From contig JBFXKG010000012.1 of the NCBI GenBank assembly GCA_050174015.1, positions 44,622 through 108,621 of the forward strand: a stretch of 64,000 nt of DNA, given 5' to 3'. The stretch comes from Candidatus Krumholzibacteriia bacterium. Its GTDB lineage: Bacteria > Krumholzibacteriota > Krumholzibacteriia > LZORAL124-64-63. The position numbers and the translations under genes were made by a program. Below the pieces are notes generated by a model. It did not search any database. It was not told the DNA's origin and was given only the letters and a program-made list of their open reading frames with translations. Positions 6,407-64,000 of this stretch are shown here, piece by piece (within the stretch, counting starts at the first letter, position 1; every line of letters starts with the position of its first letter).

Positions 6407-6451
6407 GCCCTTATGGTACCCGGGGAACCGCCGGGGGGCAACGGCCGGATT

Positions 6452-7669
6452 CTACTCGTACCTGAGGGCCTCGATGGGGTTCAGGGCGGCGGCCTTGCGG
6501 GCCGGCCAGAATCCGAAGAACACACCCACTCCGGCGGAGAACCCCAGGGCCAGGCCCACGGTTCCCGGATCGATCACCGTCGGCCATCCGGTGATCTCGC
6601 CCACCAGCCGGCTGCCGCCGTAGCCGAGGCCGACGCCCAGCAGGCCCCCGAACAATGAGAGCACCACGCTTTCGACCAGGAACTGGGTGAGGACGTCGCC
6701 GGGACGTGCGCCGATGGCCATGCGGATCCCGATCTCGCGGGTCCGCTCGGTGACCGACACCAGCATGATGTTCATGATGCCGATGCCGCCGACCAGGAGG
6801 GAGATCCCCGCGATGGCCGCCAGCAGGATGGTCATGACCTCGGTGGTGCCGGTGGCCGCCTCGGCGATGTCGTTCTGGTTGCGGACGGTGAAGTCGTCCT
6901 CCTCCCATTCGGCCAGGCCGTGGCTCTCCCGCAGGATCACCCCGGCCTCGTCCATGGCGGCGTCGACGTCGTCCGGGGACCAGGCCGATCCGAGGATCTG
7001 GGGGATGAACTGGCGGCCGGAGAGACGCTCCTGGACGGTGGTGTAGGGGCACAGGACCATGTCGTCCTGGTCGCTCCCGTCGGCGGTCTGGCCCTTCTCG
7101 GCCAGGACCCCGATGACGTTGAAGGGGACTCCGCGCAGGATGACCTGCTGCCCGATGGCGCTCTGCTCGGGAAAGAGGTTCTGAGCGACGGTGGCGCCGA
7201 GGACCGCCACCTTGCGGCGCGACCGGATGTCCTTGACGTCGAAGAACTGCCCGTCCTCCAGATTCCAGTCGCGGACGGTCCGGTAGGAGACGTCCACGCC
7301 GTAGATGGGGGCGCGCCAGTTGCCGCCGCCGCCGCGGATCCGGGAGAAGGTCATGATCACCGGGGAGACCTCGGCCAGGAGCAGGGATTCGCGGGCGAGC
7401 TTGACCGCGTCGTCGACGGTCAGGCTGCTCATCGTGCCCGCGCCCCGGCTGACCCCGCCCGTCGTGCTGGCGCCGGGAGTGATGACCACCATGTTGGTCC
7501 CGAGGTTGCGGATGTTCTCCTCGATGCGCGAGCGGGCTCCGCTGCCGATGGCCACCATGACGATCACCGCGCCGACGCCGATGATGATGCCCAGCATGGT
7601 CAGGGCGCTGCGCAGCTTGGTGCGGGCGATGCCCCGCAGGGCGATCCGGATCAGCTGGTCGGGGCGCAT
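6452..7669 (-). CDS. MacB-like ABC transporter permease
   Basis: RSALTMLGIIIGV, periplasmic domain, GGIGIMNIMLVSVTERTREIGIRMAIGA, LNPIEALRYE. Confidence 0.93.
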   Translation of the reverse strand: MRPDQLIRIALRGIARTKLRSALTMLGIIIGVGAVIVMVAIGSGARSRIEENIRNLGTNMVVITPGASTTGGVSRGAGTMSSLTVDDAVKLARESLLLAEVSPVIMTFSRIRGGGGNWRAPIYGVDVSYRTVRDWNLEDGQFFDVKDIRSRRKVAVLGATVAQNLFPEQSAIGQQVILRGVPFNVIGVLAEKGQTADGSDQDDMVLCPYTTVQERLSGRQFIPQILGSAWSPDDVDAAMDEAGVILRESHGLAEWEEDDFTVRNQNDIAEAATGTTEVMTILLAAIAGISLLVGGIGIMNIMLVSVTERTREIGIRMAIGARPGDVLTQFLVESVVLSLFGGLLGVGLGYGGSRLVGEITGWPTVIDPGTVGLALGFSAGVGVFFGFWPARKAAALNPIEALRYE

Positions 7670-8409
7670 GCGACACCTCCGGTGGGCAGGGCGGCCAGGT
7701 CGACCCGGGCGTCGCCGCGGCCGGCGACCGGCTCGTCCCTGACGATCCGTCCGTCCCGCAGCTCGACGATGCGCCGGGCGTAACGGGCGATGTCCTGTTC
7801 ATGGGTCACCATCAGCAGGGTCAGCCCCTGGTCGTTCAGTTCCTGGAACAGGGCGAGGACCTCGATGCTGGTGCGGGTGTCGAGATTGCCCGTGGGTTCG
7901 TCGGCCAGCAGCAGGGCCGGTCCGGTGACCAGCGCCCGGGCGATGGCCACCCGCTGCTGCTGCCCTCCCGACAGCTCGTTGGGCAGATGGGAGGCCCGGT
8001 CGGCCAGCCCCACACGCTCCAGAGCCTTGCGGGCCAGGTCCCGGGGCCGGCCGGGCCGGCCGGTGCGGTCGTAGAGCAGGGGCAGTTCGACGTTCTCCAG
8101 GGCGCTGGTCCGGGCCAGCAGGTTGAAGCCCTGGAAGACGAATCCCAGCCTGCGGTTGCGGATGTCGGCCAGCCGGTTGCGGTCCAGGCTCTCGACCCGT
8201 TCGCCGTCCAGCTCGTAGCTGCCGGAGGTCGGCTGGTCCAGGCAACCGATGATGTTCATCAGGGTGGACTTCCCCGACCCCGAGGCTCCCATCACGGCCA
8301 CCATCTCCCCCGGCTCCACGACCAGGTCGATGCCCGCCAGGGCGTCCACCCGCGTGGCGCCCATGTCGTAGGTCTTGGTCAGCTCCCGGATGCGGATGAT
8401 GTCGCCCAT
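7651..8409 (-). CDS. ABC transporter ATP-binding protein (MacB/LolD-type)
   Basis: GASGSGKST, LSGGQQQRVAIARAL, LLADEPTGNLD; start set at MGDII (8409); 19-bp overlap with the permease. Confidence 0.93.
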   Translation of the reverse strand: MGDIIRIRELTKTYDMGATRVDALAGIDLVVEPGEMVAVMGASGSGKSTLMNIIGCLDQPTSGSYELDGERVESLDRNRLADIRNRRLGFVFQGFNLLARTSALENVELPLLYDRTGRPGRPRDLARKALERVGLADRASHLPNELSGGQQQRVAIARALVTGPALLLADEPTGNLDTRTSIEVLALFQELNDQGLTLLMVTHEQDIARYARRIVELRDGRIVRDEPVAGRGDARVDLAALPTGGVACAPTS

Positions 8410-8410
8410 G

Positions 8411-9685
8411 CTAGAACCCGCCCGGTCGCGGCGGACCCGATGGCCGGCCCTGCTGCTGGAAGGGCGAGCTCGCCGCCGCGGCGGCCTTGCTGGCGACGCC
8501 CGCGATGACCTCCAGTCCCTCGACCAGGTCACGCCCCTCGACGGCCGTGTTGGTGCCGTCGGTGATGCCGGTGCGGACCATGACGACGTCCAGGGTCCCG
8601 TCCTCGCGGGTCACCCAGAGCATGCCCCGGTCGGCGGGCATCGTGCCGCCGGGTTGCCCGCCCTGCCCGCCGGGCCCGGAGTCGGCGCCTTGACCGCGGG
8701 GACCCGTCGTCCCCTCCTCGCCCGGGCCCCGGCCTCGCTCGGCCCGCCTGCGCGCGAAGGCCGCGGCCATCTCTTCCTGGGACGGGCGGAAGCGGAGGGC
8801 GGCGTTGGGTGCGAACAGGACGTCGGTGGCCTCGTCGACGATGAAGTCGACGGTGGCGGTCATGCCGGGGAGCAGCCGCATCCCGGGATTCTCCACGCGG
8901 ACGACCACCTGGTAGTTGACGACGTTGTCGTCGACCACCGACTGCAGCCGCAACTGCCTGACGGTTCCCTGGAAGGTATCGTCCGGGTAGGCCTGGACCG
9001 TGAATCTGGTGGCCTGGCCTTCACGGATCCGGCCGATGTCGCTCTCGTCCACGGCCGCCAGGATCTGCATCTCGGTCAGATCCCCGGCGATCTGGAAGAG
9101 TTCGGGGGCGGAAAAGGAGGACTGGACGGTCTGGCCCACGTCGACCGATCGCCGGACGACGGTCCCGGCGATGGGGGCCGTGATGGTGGCGTAGGCCAGG
9201 TTCCGCCGGGCCCGGTCCAGGTCTACCCGCGCGCCCTTCAGACCGGCCCGGGCCACGTCCAGGCCGTACTGGACCCCGTTGAACTCGCTGGCCGAGATCA
9301 TCTCCTCGCGGAAAAGGGGTTCGGTGCGGGCGAACTCCCGTTCGGCCTGGCGGAGCTCCGCGGTCGCACGGTCCAGCTGGGCCTCGGCCGAGGCCACCGC
9401 CGCGGCCAGCAGGGTCGTGTCGATGCGGGCGATGACCTGCCCTGCGGCGACCCGGTCGTTGAAGTCGGTCAGGATCTCGTCGACGATCCCGCTGACCTGG
9501 GTGCCGACCTGGACGGTCGTGACCGGTTCGAGGGTCCCGGTGCTGGTCACCACGGAAGCCAGGTCGCCGCGGGCGACGGCGACCAGACGGAAGGAGGCGG
9601 CCTGGTCGCCGTCTTCGCCGCGCACCTGCCAGTAGACGGCGGCCGCGACCAGACAGAAGGCCAGGACGGTCAGGGCTCTTTTCAT
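8411..9685 (-). CDS. MacA/HlyD-family periplasmic adaptor subunit
   Basis: N-terminal anchor, VQVGTQVSG, alpha-hairpin, ITAPIAGTV, LLPGMTA. Confidence 0.92.
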   Translation of the reverse strand: MKRALTVLAFCLVAAAVYWQVRGEDGDQAASFRLVAVARGDLASVVTSTGTLEPVTTVQVGTQVSGIVDEILTDFNDRVAAGQVIARIDTTLLAAAVASAEAQLDRATAELRQAEREFARTEPLFREEMISASEFNGVQYGLDVARAGLKGARVDLDRARRNLAYATITAPIAGTVVRRSVDVGQTVQSSFSAPELFQIAGDLTEMQILAAVDESDIGRIREGQATRFTVQAYPDDTFQGTVRQLRLQSVVDDNVVNYQVVVRVENPGMRLLPGMTATVDFIVDEATDVLFAPNAALRFRPSQEEMAAAFARRRAERGRGPGEEGTTGPRGQGADSGPGGQGGQPGGTMPADRGMLWVTREDGTLDVVMVRTGITDGTNTAVEGRDLVEGLEVIAGVASKAAAAASSPFQQQGRPSGPPRPGGF

Positions 9686-9847: not shown

Positions 9848-10567
9848 CTACTTGAACATGGCCTTGAGCGTGCCCCAGGAGGCGCTCTCGTTGTCCACGA
9901 TGCAGTTGACGTCCACCAGGGCGCAGCAGACGTCGAACAACTCGCCGCCGTTGGCTCCGCACAGGAAGGCGGGATAATCGGCAGGCATGGGGGAGGCCAT
10001 GCCGCTGTCCCAGACCTTCATGGCGTTGGCGATGGAGAAGCGGATCTCGCAGCCGTTGAGCTGGGGGCAGTTGTCGAACGTTCCGCTGAAGGTGATGTTC
10101 GAGGTCAGGCCGACGGGGACGCCACCGAAGAAGGTGATGGTGGCCACGACCTGGTAGCTGGTGAGCTGGCCGGACAGATCGGCCACCCCGTCGGACCAGG
10201 TGTTGTCCTTGGTCATCCAGAACTCCCCGCCGACGTAGTCGGTGGAGTAGGTGCGGGACCCGTTGCCGTACCCGTCGAGGGAGTCGTCGATGAGGGTGGC
10301 GCCGTTGGCGTCGATGGCCATCCCGAAGGCCTTCCATTCGGTGCCCAGGGTGGACCCGTTCCAGGACATGGCGTTCTGGGTGTTGCCGGGCTGGCCGGGT
10401 TGCAGGGGAGCTCCGTCGACGCCGCACCAGGCTTCGGAGGCGCGGCCGCCCAGCATGGTGCCGTTGTAGGTGGCCCAGGCGCCGTTGAGGTTGGGGCACT
10501 GGGCGGAGGCGAGGGTCGAGACGAGCAGGAGCAGCAAGACCAGGGAAGCCGTTCTCAAGATGTGCAT
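9848..10567 (-). CDS. Secreted Cys-rich hypothetical protein (239 aa) with C-terminal SWGTLKAMFK tail; paralog 2
   Basis: Signal peptide ending ASA-QC, GGAGG RBS, 8 Cys conserved with the neighbouring paralog. Confidence 0.88.
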   Translation of the reverse strand: MHILRTASLVLLLLLVSTLASAQCPNLNGAWATYNGTMLGGRASEAWCGVDGAPLQPGQPGNTQNAMSWNGSTLGTEWKAFGMAIDANGATLIDDSLDGYGNGSRTYSTDYVGGEFWMTKDNTWSDGVADLSGQLTSYQVVATITFFGGVPVGLTSNITFSGTFDNCPQLNGCEIRFSIANAMKVWDSGMASPMPADYPAFLCGANGGELFDVCCALVDVNCIVDNESASWGTLKAMFK

Positions 10568-10749: not shown

Positions 10750-11469
10750 TCACTTGTACTGGGCCTTCAGGTCGCCCCAGGAGGTCGGTTCGGTGTCGAT
10801 GGCGCAGGCGATGTCCATGCTGATGCAGCAGACGTCGAAGAATTCCCCCGCACTCGCCGAGCACAGGAACGCGGGGTAATTGGCCGGCATGGGAGTGGCC
10901 ATGTTGGTGTCCCAGATCTTCATGGCGTTGGCGATGGCGAAACGGACCTCGCAGCCGTTGACCGCCGGACAGTTCAGGAAATCCCCGGTGAAGGAGATGT
11001 TGCTGGTGGCTCCCATGGGGATCCCCGTGTAGAAGGTGATGGTCGTGAACACGACGTAGGACGTCAGGACGCCCTCGAGGTCGGCCGCACCGTCGGCCCA
11101 GGTGTTGTCCCGGGTCAACCAGAACTGCCCGCCCAGGTAGTTGGTCCTGTAGGTCCGCGTCCCGGTCCCCGATCCGTCCAGGGTGTCGGAGATCAGGACG
11201 GCGCCGGCGCCGTCGATCTCCATGCCCCAGGCCTTCCACAGGGCCCCCAGGGCGGCCCCGTTCCAGGACATGGCGTTCTGCGTGTTGCCGGGCACTCCGC
11301 CCTGGATGGGCATCCCTCCGGACCCGCACCAGGCTTCCGAGGCCCGGCCGCCGGTCATGGAGCCGTCATTGGTGGTCCAGTAGCCGTTGAGGTTGGGGCA
11401 CTGGGCCCAGGCCGCCGCAGCGATCAGGACGAGCGCCGCCGTGAGAATGAGCATTGTCATGGTGCGCAT
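10750..11469 (-). CDS. Secreted Cys-rich hypothetical protein (239 aa) with C-terminal SWGDLKAQYK tail; paralog 1
   Basis: Start set at MRTMT (11469) after GGAGG; signal peptide ending AWA-QC; ungapped colinear with 9848-10567. Confidence 0.88.
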   Translation of the reverse strand: MRTMTMLILTAALVLIAAAAWAQCPNLNGYWTTNDGSMTGGRASEAWCGSGGMPIQGGVPGNTQNAMSWNGAALGALWKAWGMEIDGAGAVLISDTLDGSGTGTRTYRTNYLGGQFWLTRDNTWADGAADLEGVLTSYVVFTTITFYTGIPMGATSNISFTGDFLNCPAVNGCEVRFAIANAMKIWDTNMATPMPANYPAFLCSASAGEFFDVCCISMDIACAIDTEPTSWGDLKAQYK

Positions 11470-11868
11470 GGAAAACCTCCCGCGATAACGGTACCGCATC
11501 GGGACTCGAGGATCGATGAGTCGGCGAATGATGGGGGGCGAGAGGGCGAGGCTTACCGCATCGGTGTCGTCCAGCAACTGCCGGCTCACCAACGGAACCA
11601 GGTGAGGATATCAGAATGATCGGATGAATTCAAGAAAGATCATTGCCCCCAAATCCCACCGGATGGCTTATTTGCCGGGAAAATTTTGCCGGTCCGGACC
11701 AGGAGAGGGGGCAGATTTCAGGGACCAGTCGACCTGCGATCAATTATGAAAATCATTGTCGTTAAAAAAATAACTTAAGGTTGACGCGTACGACTCGAAA
11801 GCCCTAGGGTGCTTCTATGAGTAGGGCGGTCCGGCCCTGCTCGCGACCCCAATCGAGAGGTTTGAGTC

Positions 11869-12825
11869 TTGCGGACACGAACAAAACTTCGGGTTGAGCT
11901 GACGAGGCACGCCCTGGCGAGGGCGGCCGGGTTGGCTCTGGCGACGGGCCTCCTGCTGGCCCTGCCCGTGCTCGCCGCCCAGGGAGGGGCGGGCCAGGTT
12001 TGCCTGGATTGTCATGAGGATCAAGCAAGCAGTCTGGAATTCGGACCCCACAGCCTTTCCCCGGGCGGCGAGGGCAGGTTGAACTGCCTGTCGTGCCATG
12101 ACGGCGACCCCCGACACTGGGAGGACGATCCTTCTTCCTACCCCATGGCCAATCCGGCCGACATGGGCGGCGAGGAGGCCGGCAGGCTCTGCGGCCGGTG
12201 CCACGATTCGGTCCACCAGATCAACCAGCAGACGGTCAGCCCCCATGCGGCCGCCGGCGTCTCCTGCCTGGCCTGCCACCAGGTCCACGGCAGCGAGCTC
12301 CGCGGGTCGCTGGTCTCGGAGCAGCCGGGACTCTGCTTCGGATGCCACGCAGGGCAGCGGGCCGACTTCGCCCAACCGTTCCATCACCCTGCCGACGAAG
12401 GGTTCATGGACTGCAGCGATTGCCACCTGAAGTCCGACGACGGGTGGGATTCCCTGGTGATGCGCGGCGGCGACGCCGTCTGTCTCGGTTGCCATGCCGA
12501 GTTCCAGGGGCCGTTCCCCTTCGAACACCAGGCCGGAGTGGGATACTCCACCGAGGAGGGCAGCTGCCTCAACTGTCACGAGCCCCACGGTTCGGCCCAT
12601 CCCCGGCTGCTGAAGCAGCCTTACGAGGGGCCCCACTTCCAGCTCTGCTCCCAGTGCCACTCGGTTCCCGGGCACCGCGACAACAGCCAGCACGGAACGG
12701 AGTGGGCGGACATGGCCTGCGGTGAGTGCCACGTGGACATCCACGGCTCCTACACCAGCAGCAAGTTCTTCGCGCCGATCATCGAGGCCCAGGGCTGCAA
12801 CACCCTGGGTTGCCACCAGCGGTAG
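11869..12825 (+). CDS. MtrA/DmsE/PioA-like periplasmic decaheme cytochrome c, plus one CX4CH motif
   Basis: 10 CXXCH (CLDCH, CLSCH, CGRCH, CLACH, CFGCH, CSDCH, CLGCH, CLNCH, CSQCH, CGECH), GPFPFEH and CHEPHGS DmsE-type segments, signal peptide; TTG start is uncertain. Confidence 0.88.
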   Translation: MRTRTKLRVELTRHALARAAGLALATGLLLALPVLAAQGGAGQVCLDCHEDQASSLEFGPHSLSPGGEGRLNCLSCHDGDPRHWEDDPSSYPMANPADMGGEEAGRLCGRCHDSVHQINQQTVSPHAAAGVSCLACHQVHGSELRGSLVSEQPGLCFGCHAGQRADFAQPFHHPADEGFMDCSDCHLKSDDGWDSLVMRGGDAVCLGCHAEFQGPFPFEHQAGVGYSTEEGSCLNCHEPHGSAHPRLLKQPYEGPHFQLCSQCHSVPGHRDNSQHGTEWADMACGECHVDIHGSYTSSKFFAPIIEAQGCNTLGCHQR

Positions 12826-12837
12826 GAGGAGGCTGAA

Positions 12838-14400
12838 ATGCGACGGATTGCAACGATTTCAAGCCTGGCCGCCCTGCTGCTCGTGCTGGCCTTGCCGGCG
12901 GCTGCGGAATCCCTGAAGGGGACGGTCAAGCTCGGAGTCATCACCAAGGACGAGGACACGAGCGACGTGACGGCCATCCAGGAGACGGTCAACATCCACG
13001 ACGGATTCTCCGTCACCCAGGTGGCCCTGCGCGGGGCCCTGGGCGGCGGCAGCGCCTTCCGCCTCGACCTGGAGGAGATGAACCTCGATTCGCGGCGGGG
13101 TTACTTCAACTACCGGCTGCAGGATCGCCTCCACCTGACCGCGCGTTACGATCGCCGCCGGCATCTCTTCGACGCCGACGGGGCCGTGGAGAGCGAACGG
13201 GAGAAGTGGATGTTCGGCGCGAGGGTGACCCCGGCGGACTGGCTGCGGATCACCGGGGACTATTCCCGGCAGACCCGCCAGGGCGACCGTCTTGGTTACG
13301 GGGCCGGCTTCCAGAGCTGGCTGGGCGACGCCTACGATTACACCTTCGGGATCGGCCGGGTGGAGGCCGAGGCGCGCCGGGGCGCCCGGGCCTTCGCGGT
13401 CGGATTCGAGACCAGCAGCTTCGAGGACGCCCAGCTGACCGCGGCCGACCGGACCGGGCAGGTCTTCTCGGCCCGCGCCAACCTGCCTTGCCTGCTGTGG
13501 CCCGGCAAGCTGTCGCACTACCTGCGGGGCACCCTCGGCGAGCAGAAGCTCGACCAGGGGGGATTGGCCTACACCATGTCGACCTTCCAGTACGTCGGCG
13601 TCGCGCGGCCCGTCCGGCCCTTCCAGCTCGACTACCGGTTCTTCGGCAGCAGGGTGGAGGACGACGCCACCGGCCTGCAGACCGACGAGGTCCGCAACGA
13701 CTTCGACCTGACCTGGCATCACGCCCACGGCAAGGTCTTCGGCGGTTACGGCTACTTCACCAACGACAACGAGAGGTCGCTGACCAGCGACAACGTCTGG
13801 CGCGTCGGGACGGTGGTCGGCGACGGCAAGGTCTTCAAGGGCAAGGTCAGCTACGCCAGCAGCGAGAAGACGGACACCGAAGGCCTGACCCTCCTGAAGG
13901 ACATCGAGGCCAGCCGGCTCCGGTTTAGCCTGGACGTCAATCCCGACGACAAGATGAACTTCGGCGTCTCCTACATCGACCATGACCGGACCTTCCCGGT
14001 CATCGGGGTGGAATCCTCCGGACTCCGCTACGCGGCCCGGGGCGGCTACCGGCTGGACGGCCTCGGCGCCTTCAACCTGACCTACAGCTATTCGGACGAC
14101 GAATACCAGGACCTGGCAGGCTCCTTCCAGGCGGACAACCACGCCGTGACCGGTCGTCTGGACATCGATCGCTTCCGCGACCTGAAACTGTCGGCGGGGC
14201 TGACTTACCTCGACATCGGCAAGGACCTGGACATCGAGAAGTCCATCCTGATGTTCGCCGGCGAGTACGCCCTGCAGGACGATTACTTCGTGGAGGTGAA
14301 ATACAACGTCTACAACTACGACGATTTCATCCTCATGGATCGCTACTACACCGCGAACGTGGTGTGGGTGAATGTCGGCTACAAGCTTTCGATCGACTAG
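12838..14400 (+). CDS. Outer-membrane beta-barrel, MtrB/PioB-like porin
   Basis: Signal peptide, alternating amphipathic Tyr/Gly-rich strands, no CXXCH, directly after the decaheme gene with a GGAGG RBS; 520 aa. Confidence 0.78.
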   Translation: MRRIATISSLAALLLVLALPAAAESLKGTVKLGVITKDEDTSDVTAIQETVNIHDGFSVTQVALRGALGGGSAFRLDLEEMNLDSRRGYFNYRLQDRLHLTARYDRRRHLFDADGAVESEREKWMFGARVTPADWLRITGDYSRQTRQGDRLGYGAGFQSWLGDAYDYTFGIGRVEAEARRGARAFAVGFETSSFEDAQLTAADRTGQVFSARANLPCLLWPGKLSHYLRGTLGEQKLDQGGLAYTMSTFQYVGVARPVRPFQLDYRFFGSRVEDDATGLQTDEVRNDFDLTWHHAHGKVFGGYGYFTNDNERSLTSDNVWRVGTVVGDGKVFKGKVSYASSEKTDTEGLTLLKDIEASRLRFSLDVNPDDKMNFGVSYIDHDRTFPVIGVESSGLRYAARGGYRLDGLGAFNLTYSYSDDEYQDLAGSFQADNHAVTGRLDIDRFRDLKLSAGLTYLDIGKDLDIEKSILMFAGEYALQDDYFVEVKYNVYNYDDFILMDRYYTANVVWVNVGYKLSID

Positions 14401-14438
14401 TTGCAAGTCATGACGCCCGTCACAAGGAGGATCCGATA

Positions 14439-15428
14439 ATGACGGCAGCCCGCAAAAACCTGATGATCCTGATCTGCCTCGTGTCGTTGCTGGCCCTCGG
14501 CGCCTGTACCCGCGAGATCACCTACACCCAGGTGAACGAGAGCGCCTCGAGCTGCTTCGACTGCCACAACGATCAGGACACCTTCCTGATGGAAGCCCAG
14601 CTCGAGTGGACCTACTCCATGCACGCCATCGGCGCCAACGTCGCCTATGCCGGCGGCCGCAGCGGATGCTCCAATTGCCACTCCGGGGCGGGCTTCGAAG
14701 CTGCCCTGGCCGGCGAAACCGCAGTTCCTTACGCGACGTCCATCCGCTGCTTCAGCTGCCACGCTCCCCACACCAACGAGGACTTCCAGCTGCGGGTGAC
14801 GGAGGCCCAGACCCTGGCTGACGGAACGGTCCTGGACATCGGGGACGGCAATCTCTGCCTGTCCTGCCACCAGGCCCGCCGCGACGTGGCCACCGAGATC
14901 GTGGCCGACGACGAGGGCAACTACGTCATCCCCAGCAGCCACTGGGGCCCCCACCACGGTCCCCAGGGCGACCTCCTGGCCGGGACCAACGGCTACGAGT
15001 TCGAGGGCTACACCTACCGCAGTGCGGCTCCTCCGGCCCACCTGGCCAACGGCTGCATCAGCTGCCACTTCGCCGAGAACAGTGCCGCGGACCTGGGCGG
15101 CCACTCGTTCAACATGACCAACGCCGCCGGCGCCATGAACGTCAACGGCTGCAACCTCTGCCATACCGACCTGACGGACTTCAACTACGAAGGCCGCGTG
15201 GCGGAGATCGACGAGCTGGGCGAGGAACTGCACGCCCTGCTGGTCGCCGAGGGGACGGTCGACGAGGACGGGCATCCGATCCAGGACGCCGTCACGACCC
15301 TCGAGGGGAAGGCCGCGACGTGGAACTTCCTGTTCTGGGAAGAGGACCGGAGCCACGGCGTCCACAACCCCGACTATGCCGAAGACCTGCTCCGGGCCTC
15401 GATCGCGGTCATGAGCGGCGAGAAGTAG
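14439..15428 (+). CDS. Hexaheme c-type cytochrome lipoprotein (C-terminus resembles Geobacter OmcB-type surface cytochromes)
   Basis: Lipobox LALGA-C; 6 CXXCH (CFDCH, CSNCH, CFSCH, CLSCH, CISCH, CNLCH); C-terminal DRSHGVHNPDYAEDLL; AAGGAGG RBS. Confidence 0.85.
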   Translation: MTAARKNLMILICLVSLLALGACTREITYTQVNESASSCFDCHNDQDTFLMEAQLEWTYSMHAIGANVAYAGGRSGCSNCHSGAGFEAALAGETAVPYATSIRCFSCHAPHTNEDFQLRVTEAQTLADGTVLDIGDGNLCLSCHQARRDVATEIVADDEGNYVIPSSHWGPHHGPQGDLLAGTNGYEFEGYTYRSAAPPAHLANGCISCHFAENSAADLGGHSFNMTNAAGAMNVNGCNLCHTDLTDFNYEGRVAEIDELGEELHALLVAEGTVDEDGHPIQDAVTTLEGKAATWNFLFWEEDRSHGVHNPDYAEDLLRASIAVMSGEK

Positions 15429-15465
15429 GCTTGACCTACAGCGGGGAGTCGTTCCCCGGTTGAAA

Positions 15466-15493
15466 CGGCGGGCGGGGGATTCCCCGCCCGCCG
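15466..15493 (+). terminator. Hairpin ending the porin-cytochrome operon
   Basis: CGGCGGGCGGGG-GATT-CCCCGCCCGCCG, a perfect 12-bp stem, followed by an AT-rich promoter-like stretch (about 15510-15570). Confidence 0.65.
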
Positions 15494-15612
15494 GCGTTTA
15501 CAGGGGTCTTTCCCGTTAGGAAGTAAACGATGTTATTTTGTTAACGAATTTTGTTTTACTTTAGTCAGGTCTCATATTGGCCACGTGGATTGGGGAATCG
15601 GAGGTGATCCCG

Positions 15613-16029
15613 GTGGCCATGCCCCCCCCGGAGCCCAAGGCGGTGCTCCACCTGAGAATCGTCCTGTGGGCGGCGGCCCTTCACTCGTTCGCCGTCGGTC
15701 TGGGCCTCATCCTGCACCCGGCGCCCGTCCTGGCCTTTTTCGGCTATGCCCCCCTGACCGAACCGTTCTTTCCCACCCAGGGGGGCGTCTTCCACGTCCT
15801 GATGGCCGTGGGCTACGCGATGGGGGCCGTCCATCCGAACCGCTTCCGGTGCCTGGTGATCTTCGCGGTCATCGTGAAGACGGCGGCCACCGTTTTCCTG
15901 CTCACCTACTGGTCCCTGGTTTCCCCCCTGTTGATCGTCCTGCTGTCCGCAGTGGGCGACGGCGTCCTCGCCGCCGCGCTGTGGTTGACGTATCGCCGCT
16001 GGCGCCGGTCCGTGCGCCTGGGAGGTTGA
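15613..16029 (+). CDS. Small integral membrane protein (about 4 TM), function unknown
   Basis: Four hydrophobic segments; GTG 15613 after GGAGG (ATG 15619 is an alternative); stop is 2 nt before the next ATG. Confidence 0.75.
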   Translation: MAMPPPEPKAVLHLRIVLWAAALHSFAVGLGLILHPAPVLAFFGYAPLTEPFFPTQGGVFHVLMAVGYAMGAVHPNRFRCLVIFAVIVKTAATVFLLTYWSLVSPLLIVLLSAVGDGVLAAALWLTYRRWRRSVRLGG

Positions 16030-18185: not shown

Positions 18186-18689
18186 ATGACCAATGCCCAA
18201 CCGGGACGCGGACGTGCGGTGATGCTCGCGGTGGTCACCCTGGCCCTGCTCGTCGTGGGCGCCGGGGGATACCTGCGGGAAGGCCCGGCTGATGATCCCC
18301 CCCGCTTCTATCTCCCGAATTCGGCCGGTGCGGTCCTGTTCACCCACGCGGATCACCTGGACATCGTCGGCGATTGCGAGACGTGCCACCACGAAAGCGC
18401 GGCCATGGATCCGCGCAATTGCCGGAGCTGCCACCCGGCGACGGCGGCCGAAGGCGAGCCGTTCCGCGGTTGCGGGTCCTGCCACGACGACCCGGACTAC
18501 ACGGCGGACTTCCTCGACCACGCCGGACTCCTGGAGATCGAGGAGCACGAGTGTTCCGGGTGCCACGATCCGGTGGGGGTGTCCGACGCCTATCATGCCT
18601 TGTGCAACGGTTGCCACCTGGAGAACGATCCCGACCGGTTCGCCGGTCCGGGCGGGCAGCCCCTCTGCGCGGCCTGCCATCTCAGGTAA
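18186..18689 (+). CDS. Class III (c3-type) hexaheme cytochrome c
   Basis: N-terminal anchor/signal, GAVLFTHADH class III motif, 6 CXXCH (CETCH, CRSCH, CGSCH, CSGCH, CNGCH, CAACH). Confidence 0.88.
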   Translation: MTNAQPGRGRAVMLAVVTLALLVVGAGGYLREGPADDPPRFYLPNSAGAVLFTHADHLDIVGDCETCHHESAAMDPRNCRSCHPATAAEGEPFRGCGSCHDDPDYTADFLDHAGLLEIEEHECSGCHDPVGVSDAYHALCNGCHLENDPDRFAGPGGQPLCAACHLR

Positions 18690-18706
18690 CGAGGGAAGGA
18701 CCGAGG

Positions 18707-19987
18707 ATGAACCTGCTGGACATGCTCAGATCGCCGGCGCGCAGAGTTCCCGAACCGGGGGCGGCCCGTCCCGGCATCATCGACATCCCCGATCCCGACC
18801 GGGTGATCATCGCCCTGGAGTACCCGGGCAAGATCCTCTTCAGACCGGTGGTGAAGGAGGGGGACACGGTCGCCGCCAACCAGTTGATCGGCAGGTCCGG
18901 GCAGGGCAACTGCCTGCACGCTTCGATCGGGGGCACCGTGCAGGAGATCCGGCCGGTCTGGTCGGCCACCAGCGACCACGTGCCTGCGGTGGTCATCGCC
19001 CGCAGCGCGGTGCCGCCCCTTTCCCCGGAAAGGGTCCTGGCCCAGGCGGGCCTCGAATTGACGCGGGCCACGCGGGTGGAGTTGATGAAGGCCTGCGGGG
19101 TCGTCAGTCCCTGGACCACGCCGGGCCCGAACGACAGCGAGGAGGACGTCGCCCGGTATCCCGAGGTGCGGCACCTGGTGATCGTCGGGGTCAACCAGGA
19201 ACCGACCACCGTCAACTACGAGCTGCTGCTCCAGCAGGAGGTCGAGGCCGTCAAGATCGGCCTGCACCGGCTCCGGGAATTCTGCCCCCGGGTGCGCCCG
19301 CGGCTGCTGGTGGCGGCGGGCATGGCGGCCTGGGCGCGCAAGGAGCTGGGGGACTCCCTCGACATCGTGCCCCTCGGGGCGGACTACCGCAGGCGGATCA
19401 GGCGGCTGGTGATTCCGGAGCTCACCGGCGAAAAGGTGGCGGCGACCGAGGCCTTCCGGGCCCACGGGATCGCCTCGATCACCGTCGAACAGCTGCTGGC
19501 CATGGTGGATTCCCAGGCGGGCCTGCCGTTCGTCCGCAAGACGGTGTCGGTGGCGGGGGCCGGGCTGGACGGCACGGTCACCGTACGGGTCCCGGTGGGG
19601 ACGCCCGTCCGCTGGATCCTGGAACAGCTGGACCTCCCCGAACCCCGCGGCGGCCGCCTGATCATGGGCGGCCCCATGCGCGGCATGGCCCATTACACCC
19701 TCGACGCCCCGGTGAGCAAGTTCGAGAACGGGGTCTATCTGCTGGACCGTGAGCACCTGCCCTCCGAGGTGAACCTCACCTGCATCAACTGCGGGGTCTG
19801 CACCCGGACCTGCCCGGTGGGTCTGCAGGTCCACCTCCTGGGCCGGTGCGTGGAATTCGGCAGCCTGTCCGACACTCCCCGCTACCACCCCGAGGCCTGC
19901 CTGGAATGCGGCCTTTGCGCGTTCGTCTGTCCGGCGCACCGGCCCCTGGTGCAGATGATCAAGATGGCCAAGAAATACGGCGGTTGA
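18707..19987 (+). CDS. rnfC: RnfC-like subunit with a degenerate NADH/FMN-binding site
   Basis: N-terminal barrel (VKEGDTV...LHASIGGTV), SLBB region, GGPMRG, two ferredoxin motifs CINCGVCTRTCP and CLECGLCAFVCP. The GMGGAGFP motif is replaced by GVVSPWTT. Confidence 0.85.
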   Translation: MNLLDMLRSPARRVPEPGAARPGIIDIPDPDRVIIALEYPGKILFRPVVKEGDTVAANQLIGRSGQGNCLHASIGGTVQEIRPVWSATSDHVPAVVIARSAVPPLSPERVLAQAGLELTRATRVELMKACGVVSPWTTPGPNDSEEDVARYPEVRHLVIVGVNQEPTTVNYELLLQQEVEAVKIGLHRLREFCPRVRPRLLVAAGMAAWARKELGDSLDIVPLGADYRRRIRRLVIPELTGEKVAATEAFRAHGIASITVEQLLAMVDSQAGLPFVRKTVSVAGAGLDGTVTVRVPVGTPVRWILEQLDLPEPRGGRLIMGGPMRGMAHYTLDAPVSKFENGVYLLDREHLPSEVNLTCINCGVCTRTCPVGLQVHLLGRCVEFGSLSDTPRYHPEACLECGLCAFVCPAHRPLVQMIKMAKKYGG

Positions 19988-19989
19988 CC

Positions 19990-20988
19990 ATGGCGACTTC
20001 GCTCGAAAAATCCCCGTTCCTGACCTCCTCCGACTTCAACGTCGCCTCCAGTCCGCACTGGCGCGACGGCAGTTCGCTCGCCCAGATCCAGGTGCTGTGG
20101 CTCGTCGCCCTGATGCCCGCGGTCTGGGGGGCCTGGAGCCATTTCGGTCTGACGGGTGTGCGGGTCCTCTGCCTGGCCACCGCCACGGCGGTGATGTGGG
20201 ACGCCCTGGGCAACCGGATCTTCCCGGGCAAGGACCACACGACCAACCTCAGCAGCGTGACCCTGGGCCTGCTGCTGGGCCTGATCCTGCCGGTGGACGC
20301 CCCCTGGTGGCTGGTCACGGTCGGCACCTTGATGATGATCATGGTCGGCAAGAAGATGTTCGGGGGCTGGGGCGGATATCCGGTCCACCCGGTGGCGCTG
20401 AGCTACGCCATGCTCGCGGTCTCCTGGCCGGGACGACTGGACCGGACGGCGGCCCTGGCCGGGCTGGACTGGCCGGTGACCATGATCGAGCCCCTGCGCC
20501 TGGTCAAGACCCTGGGCCCGGCGGCCGAAGGGGCCTTCGCGCCCCTGGACCTGTTGCGCGGCGACCAGGTGGCGGGGGTGGGGGACGGGATGGTGATCCA
20601 CCTCGCCGCCGGCGGCCTTCTGCTGGTCCTGCTGCGCCAGGTTCCCTGGCAGATCCCGGTGGGGACGCTGCTGGGAACCGCGGGTACCGCGGCGGCCCTC
20701 GCCTGGCTGACCCCGGACAGGGTGGCGTCGGCCCAGTTCCATCTGCTGACCGGGGGCACGGTCCTCATGGCGTTCTTCCTGCTGGCCGAGCACACGACCT
20801 CCCCGGTGAACGCCCGACCGATGCTGCTCTACGGGCTGCTGGCGGGGTTGCTGATGGTCCTCATCCGCACCTTCAGCAGCCACGTCGACGGGGGCATGTT
20901 CGCGCTCCTGCTGGTGAACCTGTGTTCCCCCCTGCTGGACCGCTGGGTTCCCCGTCTCAAGGGTTTGGAGGTGGGAAGCGATGCGTGA
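19990..20988 (+). CDS. rnfD: RnfD-like membrane subunit lacking the FMN-carrying Thr
   Basis: SSPHWR, GKKMFGGWG...HPVA, AEHTTSP, FALLLVNL; VTMIEPL where RnfD has (S/T)GATPL. Confidence 0.88.
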   Translation: MATSLEKSPFLTSSDFNVASSPHWRDGSSLAQIQVLWLVALMPAVWGAWSHFGLTGVRVLCLATATAVMWDALGNRIFPGKDHTTNLSSVTLGLLLGLILPVDAPWWLVTVGTLMMIMVGKKMFGGWGGYPVHPVALSYAMLAVSWPGRLDRTAALAGLDWPVTMIEPLRLVKTLGPAAEGAFAPLDLLRGDQVAGVGDGMVIHLAAGGLLLVLLRQVPWQIPVGTLLGTAGTAAALAWLTPDRVASAQFHLLTGGTVLMAFFLLAEHTTSPVNARPMLLYGLLAGLLMVLIRTFSSHVDGGMFALLLVNLCSPLLDRWVPRLKGLEVGSDA

Positions 20989-21568
20989 CATCGGCCGTCT
21001 CGTCCTGGTTCTGGTGGCGATCTGCTCGCTCAGCGCAGCCTCCCTGTCCTACGTGAGGACGTCGCTGGCGACCCGGATCGAACAGCAGGGCGACTACTAC
21101 GTCAGGGGACCGGCCCTGGCCCGGCTGTTCCAGCAGCCGGCTTCCCAGCTGCTGGCCAACAAGGTCAAGATCACCAGGGATGGGATCGAGTATCCGGTCT
21201 TTTTCCGGAAGGACGGGGAGCAGGTCACCGGTCTCGCGGTGGAAGCCTCCGGCCAGGGAGGCTACGGCGGTCCCATCGTGATGATGATCGGGATCGATCT
21301 GGCCACCGACACGGTCCTGGGCGTGGAGATCGTCTTCCACAGCGAGACCCCCGGCCTGGGCGCCCAGGTCGAGAAGGCCGGGTTCCGGCAGCAATGGGTC
21401 GGGCTTCCCCTGGGGTCGTCCGTGGCCCTCGCCGGGTCCGGAGGGTCGGTGGACGCCATCACCGGGGCGACCTTCTCCTCCAGCGCCATGGTGGACGGAA
21501 CGAACCAGGTCCTTGACCTGATGAACACGAACAGGGCAGCCATTCTGGCCGAGATCGCCGGTCGCTGA
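20981..21568 (+). CDS. rnfG: RnfG periplasmic FMN-binding subunit
   Basis: N-terminal anchor, GYGGPI, HSETPGLG, covalent-FMN motif DAITGATFSS intact. Confidence 0.92.
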   Translation: MRDIGRLVLVLVAICSLSAASLSYVRTSLATRIEQQGDYYVRGPALARLFQQPASQLLANKVKITRDGIEYPVFFRKDGEQVTGLAVEASGQGGYGGPIVMMIGIDLATDTVLGVEIVFHSETPGLGAQVEKAGFRQQWVGLPLGSSVALAGSGGSVDAITGATFSSSAMVDGTNQVLDLMNTNRAAILAEIAGR

Positions 21569-21593
21569 CCGGGGAGCCGACGGGAGCGGGATC

Positions 21594-22205
21594 ATGGATT
21601 TCAAGCAGGCGTTGACCCACGGTTTCTGGCGCGACCTGCCGCCTTTCCGCCTGGTGCTGGGGCTGTGCCCCTCGCTCGCGGTGACCGCCGCGGCGGAGAA
21701 CGGTTTGGGCATGGGGCTGGCGGTCACCTTCGTGCTGATCTTCAGCAACATGTTCATCTCGCTGCTGCGCCGGGTGATCCCCGACAAGGTGAGGATCGCC
21801 AGCTACATCGTCGTCATCGCCACCCTGGTGGTTCTGGTGGAGCTGAGCATGAAGGCCTTCTTCTTCCCGCTCTCGCAGCAGCTCGGCATCTACATCCCCC
21901 TGATCGTGGTGAACTGCATCATCCTGGGACGGGCCGAGGCCTTCGCCAGCCGCAACCCGGTGCTGATCTCCATGGCCGACGGCCTGAGCGTGGGCCTGGG
22001 CTTCACCGTTTCGTTGACCCTGGTGGGATCGCTGCGGGAGATCCTGGGCTCGGGCACCTGGTTCGGGATGGGACTTTTCGGTCCGGGCTTCGAGCCGTTC
22101 GGTTTCATGGTCAAGGCCCCGGGCGCCTTCCTCTGCCTGGGGGTGCTGCTGGGGCTCATGAACGCGTGGAGCCGCCGCCGCGGGGAAATCTTCGTCCAGA
22201 CCTGA
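21594..22205 (+). CDS. rnfE: RnfE membrane subunit
   Basis: LGLCPSLAVT, IYIPLIVVNCIILGRAE, PGAFL. Confidence 0.95.
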   Translation: MDFKQALTHGFWRDLPPFRLVLGLCPSLAVTAAAENGLGMGLAVTFVLIFSNMFISLLRRVIPDKVRIASYIVVIATLVVLVELSMKAFFFPLSQQLGIYIPLIVVNCIILGRAEAFASRNPVLISMADGLSVGLGFTVSLTLVGSLREILGSGTWFGMGLFGPGFEPFGFMVKAPGAFLCLGVLLGLMNAWSRRRGEIFVQT

Positions 22206-22217
22206 GGAGCGTGACTC

Positions 22218-22793
22218 GTGGATCTGATCATCCTGGCCGTCGGGGCCATCTTCGTGCAGAACATCCTGCTCGCGCAGTACCTGGGCAACTGCCCGTTCTG
22301 CGGCGTCTCCAAGAAGACGGGGACCGCCGTCGGCATGGGGGTCGCGGTGATCTTCGTGGCCACCCTGGCCTCGATCTTCACGTGGCTGGCCTATTACCTG
22401 CTCCTGGTGCCGCGCCACCTGGAGTACCTGCAGACCATGGTCTTCATCCTCATCATCGCCGCCCTGGTCCAGCTGGTGGAGATCTTCCTGAAGAAGCAGA
22501 GCAGGACCCTGTACGACGCCCTGGGCATCTACCTGCCCTTGATCACGACCAACTGCGCCGTGATGGGCATCGCCCTGCTGAACATCAAGCACGGGTTCGG
22601 TTTCGTGGAGATGGTGGTGTATTCCGCGGCGAGCGCGGCGGGATTCGCCCTGGCGATCATCCTGTTCGCAGGAGTGCGGGAGCGGATGTTCCTGGCGCCC
22701 GTCCCCAAGGCGATGCGCGGCACCGCCATCGCCCTGGTCACGGCCGGGATCATGTCGCTCGCGTTCATGGGGTTCGCGGGCATGGGCAAGTAG
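22218..22793 (+). CDS. rnfA: RnfA membrane subunit
   Basis: YLGNCPF, LGIYLPLITTNCAVMG, GVRER; GTG start after GAGGAG. Confidence 0.95.
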   Translation: MDLIILAVGAIFVQNILLAQYLGNCPFCGVSKKTGTAVGMGVAVIFVATLASIFTWLAYYLLLVPRHLEYLQTMVFILIIAALVQLVEIFLKKQSRTLYDALGIYLPLITTNCAVMGIALLNIKHGFGFVEMVVYSAASAAGFALAIILFAGVRERMFLAPVPKAMRGTAIALVTAGIMSLAFMGFAGMGK

Positions 22794-22809
22794 CAGCCGA
22801 GGAGTCGAC

Positions 22810-63173: not shown

Positions 63174-64000
63174 ATGTCCAGCAGCAGATCGACGCTGACT
63201 GCCCTCATCCTCCTGACCGGGATCCTCGGCTGGTCGTCTGCGCTTGCCGGGGACTTCCCCGACGCCATCTGCAACGACTGCCATACCAACACCGGCGGTT
63301 CCCCCACGGAGGTCAGCCTGCACGAGCTGGAGGGGAGCATCCACGAGGGGCTTTCCTGCACCGATTGCCACGTGGGAATCAAGTCGGTTCCCCACCCCCG
63401 GGAACTGGCCAGGCCCGATTGCGAGTCCTGTCACGAGGACGTGGTCGAAACCTACGTCCAGCACGGCCGGGGATTCGTGGGCGTGTCTCCCCACGTGCCC
63501 GCCTGCCAGGATTGTCACGGCAGCCATCAGATCCTGCCGCACACCGATCCGCAATCGACGGTCCACGCGTCCAACCTGCCGGCGACCTGCGGCGCCTGCC
63601 ACGAGGACCAGGACTTCCTCGAGCAGCTCAACATCAAGTTCAAGCACCCCATCGAGGTCTACCAGCAGGGGGTGCACGGCAAGGCGACCGCCGGCGGCAA
63701 GGACACCGCCGCATCCTGCAACGATTGCCACTCGACCGGCGGCAGCGCCCACCGGATCCTGCCTCCCGGCAACATCGAATCGACCATCAACTTCTTCAAC
63801 ATCTCCAAGACCTGCGGCAAGTGCCACGGCACCATCCAGGAGGAATTCGAAACCGGCATCCACGGCGAATTCGTGGCCCGCGGCGAGGTGGACGCTCCCA
63901 CTTGCACCCACTGCCACGGCGAACACGGCATCCTGGCGACGGACGATCCGCGGTCGCCCGTCAGTCCCTTCCGCGTCGCGGAGGCGACCTGCTCCCCCTG
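63174..64000 (+). CDS. Multiheme c-type cytochrome, 3'-truncated by the window edge; repeat pattern like CbcL/CbcA-type cytochromes
   Basis: Manual translation (not in the ORF track): signal peptide, then CNDCH, CTDCH, CESCH, CQDCH, CGACH, CNDCH, CGKCH, CTHCH and a truncated CSPC at the edge. Confidence 0.88.
   Translation, partial: MSSSRSTLTALILLTGILGWSSALAGDFPDAICNDCHTNTGGSPTEVSLHELEGSIHEGLSCTDCHVGIKSVPHPRELARPDCESCHEDVVETYVQHGRGFVGVSPHVPACQDCHGSHQILPHTDPQSTVHASNLPATCGACHEDQDFLEQLNIKFKHPIEVYQQGVHGKATAGGKDTAASCNDCHSTGGSAHRILPPGNIESTINFFNISKTCGKCHGTIQEEFETGIHGEFVARGEVDAPTCTHCHGEHGILATDDPRSPVSPFRVAEATCSP

Follow-up and report, generated by a model that had tools for sequence, protein, structure and literature searches.

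The closest described systems to the locus analysed here are the outer-membrane electron conduits of Gram-negative bacteria and the surface cytochromes OcwA and OmhA, which are associated with the cell wall or the S-layer. The MtrCAB conduit of Shewanella, encoded in the order C-A-B, combines a cytochrome wire (MtrA), a barrel sheath (MtrB) and the surface cytochrome MtrC, which like OmcA, UndA and MtrF is built of two pentahaem and two beta-barrel domains with 10-11 haems in a staggered-cross arrangement. MtoAB of Sideroxydans and PioAB of Rhodopseudomonas combine a DmsE-family decahaem cytochrome with a long MtrB-type barrel and have no MtrC. DmsEFAB of Shewanella uses an MtrAB-type module to feed a terminal reductase other than MtrC outside the cell. 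In the Mtr structure (PDB 6R2Q; Edwards et al. 2020, PMC7198977), MtrB has 26 strands and surface loops of up to ~45 Å, the first of which contains a capping helix; of MtrA, only residues 284-306 and the C-terminal haem A10 face MtrC at the cell surface. The porin-cytochrome (Pcc) complexes of Geobacter (OmbB-OmaB-OmcB) have porins of 18-22 predicted strands, a periplasmic cytochrome of 8 haems and OmcB with 12 haems (Shi et al. 2014, PMC4245776). Here we describe a three-gene operon, A-B-C, at positions 11869-15428 of a 64,000-nt stretch of DNA (the window) from a Candidatus Krumholzibacteriia bacterium. With a probability of roughly 0.6, we read it as a three-part outer-membrane electron conduit of the MtrAB type in which C would be the surface terminal oxidoreductase.

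The three open reading frames are consecutive on the + strand. The features read or assigned are as follows.

11855-11860, + strand: Shine-Dalgarno-like GAGAGG, read from the sequence, 8 nt 5' of the TTG start of A
11869-12825, + strand: gene A, 318 aa, TTG start, MtrA/DmsE-type multihaem cytochrome, presumed to reach from periplasm to surface
12796-12816, + strand: extra haem-type motif CNTLGCH of A (CX4CH, aa 310-316), C-terminal
12826-12832, + strand: Shine-Dalgarno GAGGAGG of B, 5 nt before its ATG
12838-14400, + strand: gene B, 520 aa, signal peptide, predicted compact and unplugged MtrB-like outer-membrane sheath of 26 strands
14424-14430, + strand: Shine-Dalgarno AAGGAGG of C, 8 nt before its ATG
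14439-15428, + strand: gene C, 329 aa, ATG start, hexahaem lipoprotein assigned to the OcwA/OmhA/NrfA fold
14505-14507, + strand: lipobox cysteine C23 of C, followed by T-R-E-I-T, conserved in homologues
14952-14957, + strand: His-His H172-H173 of C within WGPHHGPQGD, counterpart of the OcwA/OmhA HH motif
15466-15493, + strand: GC-rich hairpin with a 12 bp stem and a 4 nt loop, then GCGUUUAC, putative operon terminator

The genes are tightly packed, with 12 nt between the stop of A and the start of B and 38 nt between the stop of B and the ATG of C. Although the reading frame of C extends upstream to an in-frame GTG at 14364, the true start is the ATG at 14439 rather than this GTG. The G+C content of the window is 64-72% throughout. 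The hairpin begins ~40 nt past the stop of C, and the surrounding 92 nt fold with -53.3 kcal/mol (z = -4.07 against shuffled sequences), making it a probable terminator of the operon. A scan of 11400-15800 for consensus promoters and terminators gave no hits; it passed over the hairpin because the T-run that would form the U-tract is weak and short. A, B and C each have hundreds of homologues with expectation (E) values down to 1e-100 or better. Because of these homologues and the conserved gene order, the three are real genes rather than chance reading frames. The whole design amounts to ~1,170 residues. An earlier note on this DNA, made from the sequence, had listed a decahaem gene, a 520-aa barrel gene and the gene of a lipoprotein with six CXXCH motifs, tightly spaced, with strong ribosome-binding sites and a closing hairpin; all of these were recovered at the positions given above.

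The family of C comprises at least 669 matching proteins, and relatives of C are encoded at no fewer than 554 loci of species-representative genomes. Gene order was compared in the best 80 of these loci (L001-L080), which come from Krumholzibacteria, Eisenbacteria, Zixibacteria, Ignavibacteria, Calditrichota, GN15, Bacteroidota, Spirochaetes and a few Desulfobacterota. About 60 of the 80 have A, B and C in this order on the same strand (L001-L062 and L079, the exceptions being contig ends, L014 and L055). The trio occurs in Krumholzibacteria, Eisenbacteria, Zixibacteria, Ignavibacteria, Calditrichota and GN15. Among the loci, L001 is closely related, with 96% identity in C. The lineage, that of Krumholzibacteria-like metagenome-assembled genomes (MAGs), is poorly studied, as the note had said. 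The more distant relatives of C (L063-L080, 33-40% identity) stand alone or beside other cytochromes. In two loci, L040:5876-7945 (a MAG of the FCB group, that is, the Fibrobacterota-Chlorobiota-Bacteroidota superphylum and allied candidate phyla) and L041:5819-8011 (a Calditrichota MAG), the third gene has roughly double the length, and its product contains 13-14 CXXCH motifs and ends in the C-type hexahaem domain. All-against-all clustering of the flanks of 64 loci revealed no other gene universally linked to A-B-C across lineages.

Gene A encodes a protein with a signal peptide (approximately aa 1-36) and ten CXXCH motifs at aa 45, 73, 108, 133, 156, 182, 205, 233, 260 and 284. It matches TIGR03508, the DmsE family, end-to-end (E 8.4e-48, profile positions 3-257 of 258) and also NF041028, the GSU2203 decahaem family (E 3.5e-40). 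Among solved structures, residues 43-277 of A matched MtrA from the Mtr complex of Shewanella baltica (6r2q_A, E 2.9e-22). The homologues of A carry the JGI name 'DmsE family decaheme c-type cytochrome', and A adjoins a gene for an MtrB-type barrel, as genes of the MtrA/DmsE/MtoA family do. By sequence, A is thus a homologue of MtrA and the DmsE family, which bears out the proposed three-gene operon of porin and cytochromes, one of them MtrA-like.

A extends beyond its relatives at the C terminus. The 21 residues past the end of the DmsE-family profile (residue 297) hold C310-NTLG-C315-H316, a CX4CH motif. A tail motif of the form CXnCH is present in 55 of the 56 A genes adjoining B and C in the related loci, the exception being a frameshifted fragment in L004, and in all 120 of the best A homologues. 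It is mainly CX4CH, with CX1CH in seven loci and the canonical CXXCH in one. Six DmsE-family paralogues encoded in the same loci end soon after haem 10 and lack the tail motif, and MtrA of S. baltica has no CXnCH in its tail. In the tetrahaem cytochromes c3, CX4CH is an established haem c site. Haem sites of the type CX3-4CH are also discussed in Shi 2014 (PMC4245776). Because of the conserved tail motif and the precedent for CX4CH, A probably carries eleven haems, with occupancy of the CX4CH site judged from the sequence, and the label 'decaheme' is probably an undercount: the earlier description missed the additional motif. Since A10 of MtrA faces the external MtrC, the extension of A would be at the end expected to dock with an outer partner. 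As a side observation, both the A and the B homologues of L004:4367-6963 (a Krumholzibacteria MAG) are split over reading frames, indicating either frameshifts in the assembly or pseudogenes.

Gene B encodes a 520-aa protein with a signal peptide and no haem motif. Its fold was predicted by AlphaFold from an alignment of the B family, and the family profile was built from 36 members. The model (predicted local distance difference test (pLDDT) 86, predicted template-modelling (TM) score 0.74) is an unplugged barrel of 26 strands that starts directly after the signal peptide. A short helix (aa 43-49) lies in the loop between strands 1 and 2, and every predicted outer loop is at most 15 aa long. 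Foldseek comparison with the PDB placed MtrB (6r2q_B) first with E 7.8e-15 and a TM score of 0.74. The next matches are 22-strand TonB receptors with E 4e-8 or weaker and TM scores of 0.4-0.5, leaving MtrB ahead by seven orders of magnitude in E. Judged from the model, B can be assigned confidently as an MtrB-like sheath by fold, although it is a near-orphan by sequence. The earlier claim of an MtrB-like barrel shorter than that of Shewanella is borne out by the 26 predicted strands and the top Foldseek match, and a plugged TonB receptor, which the note had set against it, is excluded by the lack of a plug and by MtrB as the best match.

Assuming the usual topology of outer-membrane barrels, the outer loops of B have a conservation of 0.64, close to that of the strands (0.63), whereas the periplasmic turns have 0.44. 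The outer loops and the positions next to them account for 17 of the 36 invariant residues of B, examples being TLLKD (L9), DLDIEK (L12) and YNVYNYDD (L13). The outer loops are usually the most variable part of outer-membrane proteins. Thus, the conserved outer face of the modelled barrel suggests that a fixed protein partner sits there.

The protein encoded by C begins with MTAARKNLMILICLVSLLALGA-C, in which LALGA-C23 is the lipobox, and ends with ...EDRSHGVHNPDYAEDLLRASIAVMSGEK. It contains six CXXCH motifs at aa 39, 77, 104, 140, 206 and 238. An alignment of 34 C homologues showed that the six CXXCH motifs, the lipobox cysteine and H62, H111, H172, H222 and H309 are invariant (H63, H112, H173, H223 and H310 in alignment numbering) and that H174 of the alignment is nearly so. 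The AlphaFold model (pLDDT 83.7) is a mainly helical haem domain without a beta-barrel domain, and its C-terminal part forms a three-helix bundle of helices 251-272, 289-303 and 312-326. Searches of C against NCBIfam gave nothing significant, and those against Pfam gave only generic multihaem-motif domains (Cytochrome_C7, c3 and paired CXXCH).

Structural comparisons of C point to a different family. Foldseek matches are led by OcwA of Thermincola potens (6i5b, E 1.8e-5, TM score 0.54, 21% identity) and the S-layer undecahaem cytochrome OmhA of Carboxydothermus ferrireducens (6qvm, E 8e-5), followed by octahaem nitrite reductases and NrfA with E 7e-4 and weaker. Comparison of the family profile of C with proteins of known structure gave OcwA with E 8.8e-12, OmhA with E 4e-7 (C residues 31-328 on 374-677 of 6qvm) and NrfA with E 5e-5. 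Only the family profile reached these three; phmmer searches of the PDB sequences with C alone or with its middle segment gave nothing significant. In the alignments, the six haems of C correspond to the last six of OmhA and to haems 4-9 of OcwA. The C-terminal end, GVHNPDYA..LL, is the D.S.G.HN helix motif of the three-helix bundle of the NrfA superfamily. By modelled fold and sequence profile, C belongs with OcwA and OmhA within the NrfA superfamily.

An MtrC-like identity of C was considered and rejected. The MtrC/MtrF domain PF22113 reached 29.6 bits against a cut-off of 30, over part of the domain, and the near-match is read as driven by the haem motifs because no structural match supports a likeness to MtrC. 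MtrC, OmcA, UndA and MtrF are absent from the 40 Foldseek matches of C, in agreement with the earlier proposal that the third protein is a hexahaem lipoprotein other than MtrC.

The likeness of C to OcwA extends to the haem pocket. In OcwA, HH380/381 lie above the penta-coordinate haem 5 (Costa 2019), and this pair over the open distal face of the haem is an NrfA-type site in a protein that reduces iron oxides and also nitrite and hydroxylamine (Costa 2019; Soares 2022). The GPHHGPQ of C, within WGPHHGPQGD, aligns with GVHHPQ of OmhA and is present in 115 of 120 homologues, and the counterpart of OcwA haem 5 is haem 2 of C. Six histidines besides those of the CXXCH motifs are conserved, a number that fits five bis-His haems and one pocket histidine. 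Because the His-His pocket motif of OcwA and OmhA is kept, C probably has one haem with open (penta-coordinate) coordination, namely haem 2. C has no CXXCK active-site motif, all six motifs being CXXCH. The C family has invariant R, Y, H and Q residues, and its alignments with NrfA start after the region of NrfA that holds the catalytic Arg/Tyr/His and the Ca site. The c554-like tetrahaem N-terminal module, with its second open haem, is not part of C, which begins at the equivalent of OcwA haem 4 and OmhA haem 6.

A lipobox is present in 116 of 120 C homologues, and 107 of these 116 have an arginine at position +3. Across phyla, the lipid cysteine is followed by a conserved stretch, C-[TSDE]-R-[EKDN]-[IV]-[TV] (14505-14522 of the window and the matching site in L001-L062). 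The pattern C-x-R-x-[IV]-[TV] is almost confined to the C copies linked to A and B, with C-E-R-T-K-I of L014 as the sole exception. It could be a sorting signal or a docking strand.

The locus shares with MtrCAB a wire of the same family as A, a 26-strand sheath including the helix in the first loop, and a multihaem lipoprotein encoded in the operon. However, B is ~130-180 residues shorter, its predicted outer loops do not exceed 15 aa and it falls outside Pfam MtrB_PioB by sequence, A has the additional C-terminal CXnCH, the gene order differs, and C has six haems in an NrfA/OcwA fold instead of the four-domain architecture of MtrC. Like MtoAB and PioAB, the locus pairs a DmsE-family cytochrome with an MtrB-type barrel in the absence of MtrC, but here a third gene for a multihaem lipoprotein always follows the barrel gene and the wire has an eleventh motif. 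As in DmsEFAB, an MtrAB-type module appears to be reused with a different, possibly catalytic, surface partner, which is a hexahaem cytochrome here and not a molybdoenzyme. C shares with OcwA (6I5B) and OmhA (6QVM) the three-helix bundle with D.S.G.HN and the His-His pair over an NrfA-type open haem. In contrast to these cytochromes of 9 or 11 haems, C has no beta-sheet domain besides lacking the c554-like module, and it is a diderm lipoprotein encoded with an outer-membrane conduit. The haem core and three-helix bundle of NrfA and the octahaem nitrite reductases are found over the C-terminal two-thirds of C; compared with NrfA, C lacks the CXXCK haem and has one extra N-terminal haem, a lipid anchor and an outer-membrane conduit as its context.

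We favour the following arrangement, in which A, B and C would, we infer, form a complex. A would be exported to the periplasm and thread through B, its haem chain comprising ten canonical haems and probably an eleventh, atypical one at the outward C-terminal tip. B would be a 26-strand sheath like MtrB with the long surface loops trimmed to at most 15 residues, and with such short loops the tip of A would be more exposed than in Shewanella. C, tethered by its lipid, would lie outside the membrane in contact with the tip of A and with the conserved outer rim of B. Electrons could pass in either direction through its six haems, whose arrangement would be that of the NrfA-like half of OcwA and OmhA. 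The exchange partners may be acceptors or donors for which the outer membrane is a barrier, namely Fe(III)/Mn(IV) minerals, humics, flavins, electrodes or partner cells.

The outer face of the outer membrane is the most likely location of C. We place it there because A carries its additional haem site at the outward end and only where C is present, because the outer face of B is conserved, and because the N-terminal motif of C is specific to the copies linked to A and B. The characterised relatives OcwA and OmhA are, moreover, cell-surface reductases, and the longer fused versions of C in L040 and L041 are as expected of a wire extending outwards. The direction of electron flow is not readable from the sequence; by analogy with OcwA and OmhA, which are terminal Fe(III) reductases, we lean towards outward flow, that is, reduction.

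Several observations weigh against this arrangement. TIGR03508 matches A by E value but gives 163.1 bits, below the curated cut-off of 192.2 bits; as the match is end-to-end, A is a divergent relative and not a core member of the family. MtrB_PioB (PF11854) gives B a local score of 17.7 bits, under the gathering threshold of 23. B has no match among the PDB sequences, its homologues are labelled 'hypothetical', and a precomputed PF11854 match exists for 2 of 120. A HMMER search of 1.84 billion representatives with the 36-member B profile gave 188 clusters, whose full-length members all have 504-557 aa, and none of them is an MtrB or PioB of canonical length. Therefore, the case for homology between B and MtrB is one of fold and context, and the loop topology of B is set by analogy with other barrels. 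The tail motif of A is CX1CH in seven loci, which to our knowledge is not an established haem-binding motif. Members of the NrfA superfamily are mostly periplasmic, and the C relatives of Spirochaetes and Desulfobacterota have plain signal peptides and look like soluble periplasmic proteins. No inner-membrane quinol dehydrogenase was found beside the operon in the window.

The same architecture may run inwards, taking up electrons or oxidizing Fe(II) as in Mto or Pio and as has been proposed for Zixibacteria RBG-1. This alternative is a matter of physiology and not of architecture, and we regard it as somewhat unlikely. Castelle 2013 and Baker 2015 read the mtrAB cluster of Zixibacteria as possibly serving Fe(II) oxidation, Mtr-type conduits are cited as bidirectional, and FeGenie treats the direction of MtoAB/MtrAB as ambiguous. 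However, the premise of those two papers, that an extracellular cytochrome is missing, is removed by the conserved third gene, and the closest characterised relatives of C are terminal Fe(III) reductases.

In another alternative, which we consider unlikely, A and B alone would be the conduit, as in MtoAB and PioAB, and C would face the periplasm as an electron donor or acceptor or as an NrfA-like enzyme that shares the operon. Its lipid anchor would then be in the inner membrane or in the inner leaflet of the outer one, and C would act, for example, as a nitrite or hydroxylamine reductase or in detoxification. A periplasmic catalytic enzyme is the second case that the note had set against its own reading, and it retains some probability because of the NrfA-like core of C. 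The NrfA-type pentahaem core with one more haem, the three-helix bundle and the HH pocket motif of C are consistent with such a role, as is the turnover of nitrite and hydroxylamine by OcwA itself. The distant relatives without a lipobox are probably soluble in the periplasm and occur without A and B, and both MtrAB and MtoAB can operate without an outer cytochrome (Shi 2014, PMC4245776). However, an outer partner is favoured by the strictly kept order A-B-C, by the outward haem extension of A and by the conserved outer loops of B. The role of periplasmic shuttle would be filled in nine loci by a tetrahaem periplasmic cytochrome encoded after C. The lack of the CXXCK motif also argues against an NrfA-like enzyme, and nitrite needs no outer-membrane conduit.

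The earlier note had proposed a hybrid of the MtrAB pair with an outer cytochrome like OmcB of the Geobacter Pcc systems. The two share a three-part plan of porin, periplasmic cytochrome and outer lipoprotein cytochrome, and OmcB and C are both multihaem lipoproteins encoded after the porin gene. However, C has no Pfam or NCBIfam match to OmcB, and all its significant structure and profile matches are to OcwA, OmhA and the NrfA family, including the octahaem nitrite reductases. The 12 haems of OmcB stand against six in C (OmcB was compared by its description), the locus has no detectable link to Pcc, 26 strands are predicted for the sheath, and A is of the DmsE type whereas OmaB is unrelated to MtrA. 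A Geobacter-type third component is thus very improbable; the Mtr-type part of the proposed hybrid stands, but its second part is of the Gram-positive OcwA type with the NrfA fold. That B is an ordinary porin or TonB-dependent receptor beside unrelated cytochrome genes, as the lower Foldseek matches to such receptors might indicate, is scarcely credible for a barrel of 26 rather than 22 strands with no plug or N-terminal domain, with MtrB as by far its best match and with a place between A and C in ~60 loci of several phyla.

The favoured three-part conduit may be taken further, tentatively and at less than even odds, to a distinct family of the FCB superphylum. Its members would have an undecahaem wire with an atypical CX4CH haem at the outer tip and a low-profile 26-strand sheath, plugged into a surface hexahaem cytochrome of the NrfA fold with an open haem. 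If so, the third component would be an 'extracellular enzyme' module that reduces minerals and binds or turns over soluble substrates outside the cell, and the Gram-positive OcwA/OmhA reductases would be linked in evolution to the Gram-negative Mtr conduits. The three-part conduit itself would show that MtrAB can pair with a cytochrome of the NrfA fold, that the MtrA wire can be extended by one atypical haem and that a sheath can work with minimal surface loops. Such a compact design could be of interest for work on engineered electron conduits.

Parts of such clusters have been reported from related lineages. Castelle 2013 found homologues of MtrA and MtrB in Zixibacteria RBG-1 but none of the extracellular cytochromes of Shewanella or Geobacter and leaned towards iron oxidation, and Baker 2015 reached the same reading for another Zixibacteria bin. 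For Ignavibacteria, the first MtrB-like porin-cytochrome cluster came from Arbour 2020, and a 2021 study noted an uncharacterised cluster of barrel and multihaem components in an anode-enriched Bacteroidetes MAG. Baker 2022 stressed that MtrAB is modular, combining with MtrC homologues and 'other novel cytochromes', its coverage lying outside these phyla. Soares 2022 defined the OcwA/OmhA/MccA/c554 clade, with a single use of 'porin' and no mention of Gram-negative bacteria. In the literature outside subscription journals, we found no description of the third gene as OcwA-type, of the eleventh haem motif or of the compact barrel. If the third gene is the missing surface cytochrome, the roles of Krumholzibacteria, Eisenbacteria, Zixibacteria, Ignavibacteria and Calditrichota in iron cycling need revisiting; these are abundant, uncultured lineages, among them phyla of sediments and aquifers. 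Annotation tools that seek proteins of the MtrC or OmcB type would miss this terminal component.

The genes next to the trio in other loci suggest further components. A membrane cytochrome of the NapC/NirT type (~510 aa, six CXXCH motifs, N-terminal transmembrane helices) is encoded near A-B-C in 11 loci and is a candidate for the inner-membrane quinol dehydrogenase of the pathway. It is seen in L003, L004, L011 (2565-4097, - strand), L024, L026, L028, L037 and L043, and a cytochrome of the same type lies near the stand-alone C homologue of a Bacteroidales MAG (L080:8553-10058). The tetrahaem cytochrome of the nine loci mentioned above has ~185 aa and is encoded after C in Zixibacteria and Ignavibacteria. 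Homologues of these two cytochromes were not found in the window.

The Bacteroidota among the 80 best C loci include the cultured Roseimarinus sediminis. In the stand-alone C relatives of Bacteroidota (L065, L069, L078 and L080), the lipobox is followed by long collagen-like repeats of Gly-Pro-X or Gly-X-Asp before the first haem. These repeats resemble an extended tether, and no A or B gene is nearby.

Elsewhere in the window, a cytochrome-Rnf operon occupies 18186-24909 (+ strand), 2.7 kb downstream of the conduit operon. A membrane-anchored cytochrome c with six CXXCH motifs (18186-18689) lies directly upstream of the rnf genes, which are, all on the + strand, RnfC (~18707-19987), RnfD (19990-20988), RnfG (20981-21568), RnfE (21594-22205) and RnfA (22218-22793). 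The last gene (22810-24909) encodes a 699-aa RnfB-like protein whose C-terminal part resembles NAD(P)/FAD oxidoreductases by sequence motifs. The arrangement recalls MmcA-Rnf of Methanosarcina, a cytochrome-linked Rnf. Because the pairing of the two operons is not conserved in the related loci, a link between the conduit and Rnf is unproven.

Two paralogous secreted Cys-rich proteins of ~240 aa (9848-10567 and 10750-11592, both - strand), sharing AQCPNLNG.W and NAMSWNG, are encoded divergently just upstream of A; they have no Pfam match and no homologues beside A-B-C in the other loci. Further upstream, a MacAB-type efflux set (6411-9685, - strand) comprises a membrane-fusion protein (8411-9685) and an ABC ATPase (7651-8532), both recognized by sequence motifs, and a presumed permease (6411-7802), and it looks ordinary and unrelated to the conduit. 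At 63174-64000 (+ strand), a gene cut by the window end encodes a secreted multihaem cytochrome with a plain signal peptide and at least 8 CXXCH motifs, which scores 30.3 bits against a cut-off of 30 for the MtrC/MtrF domain II/IV.

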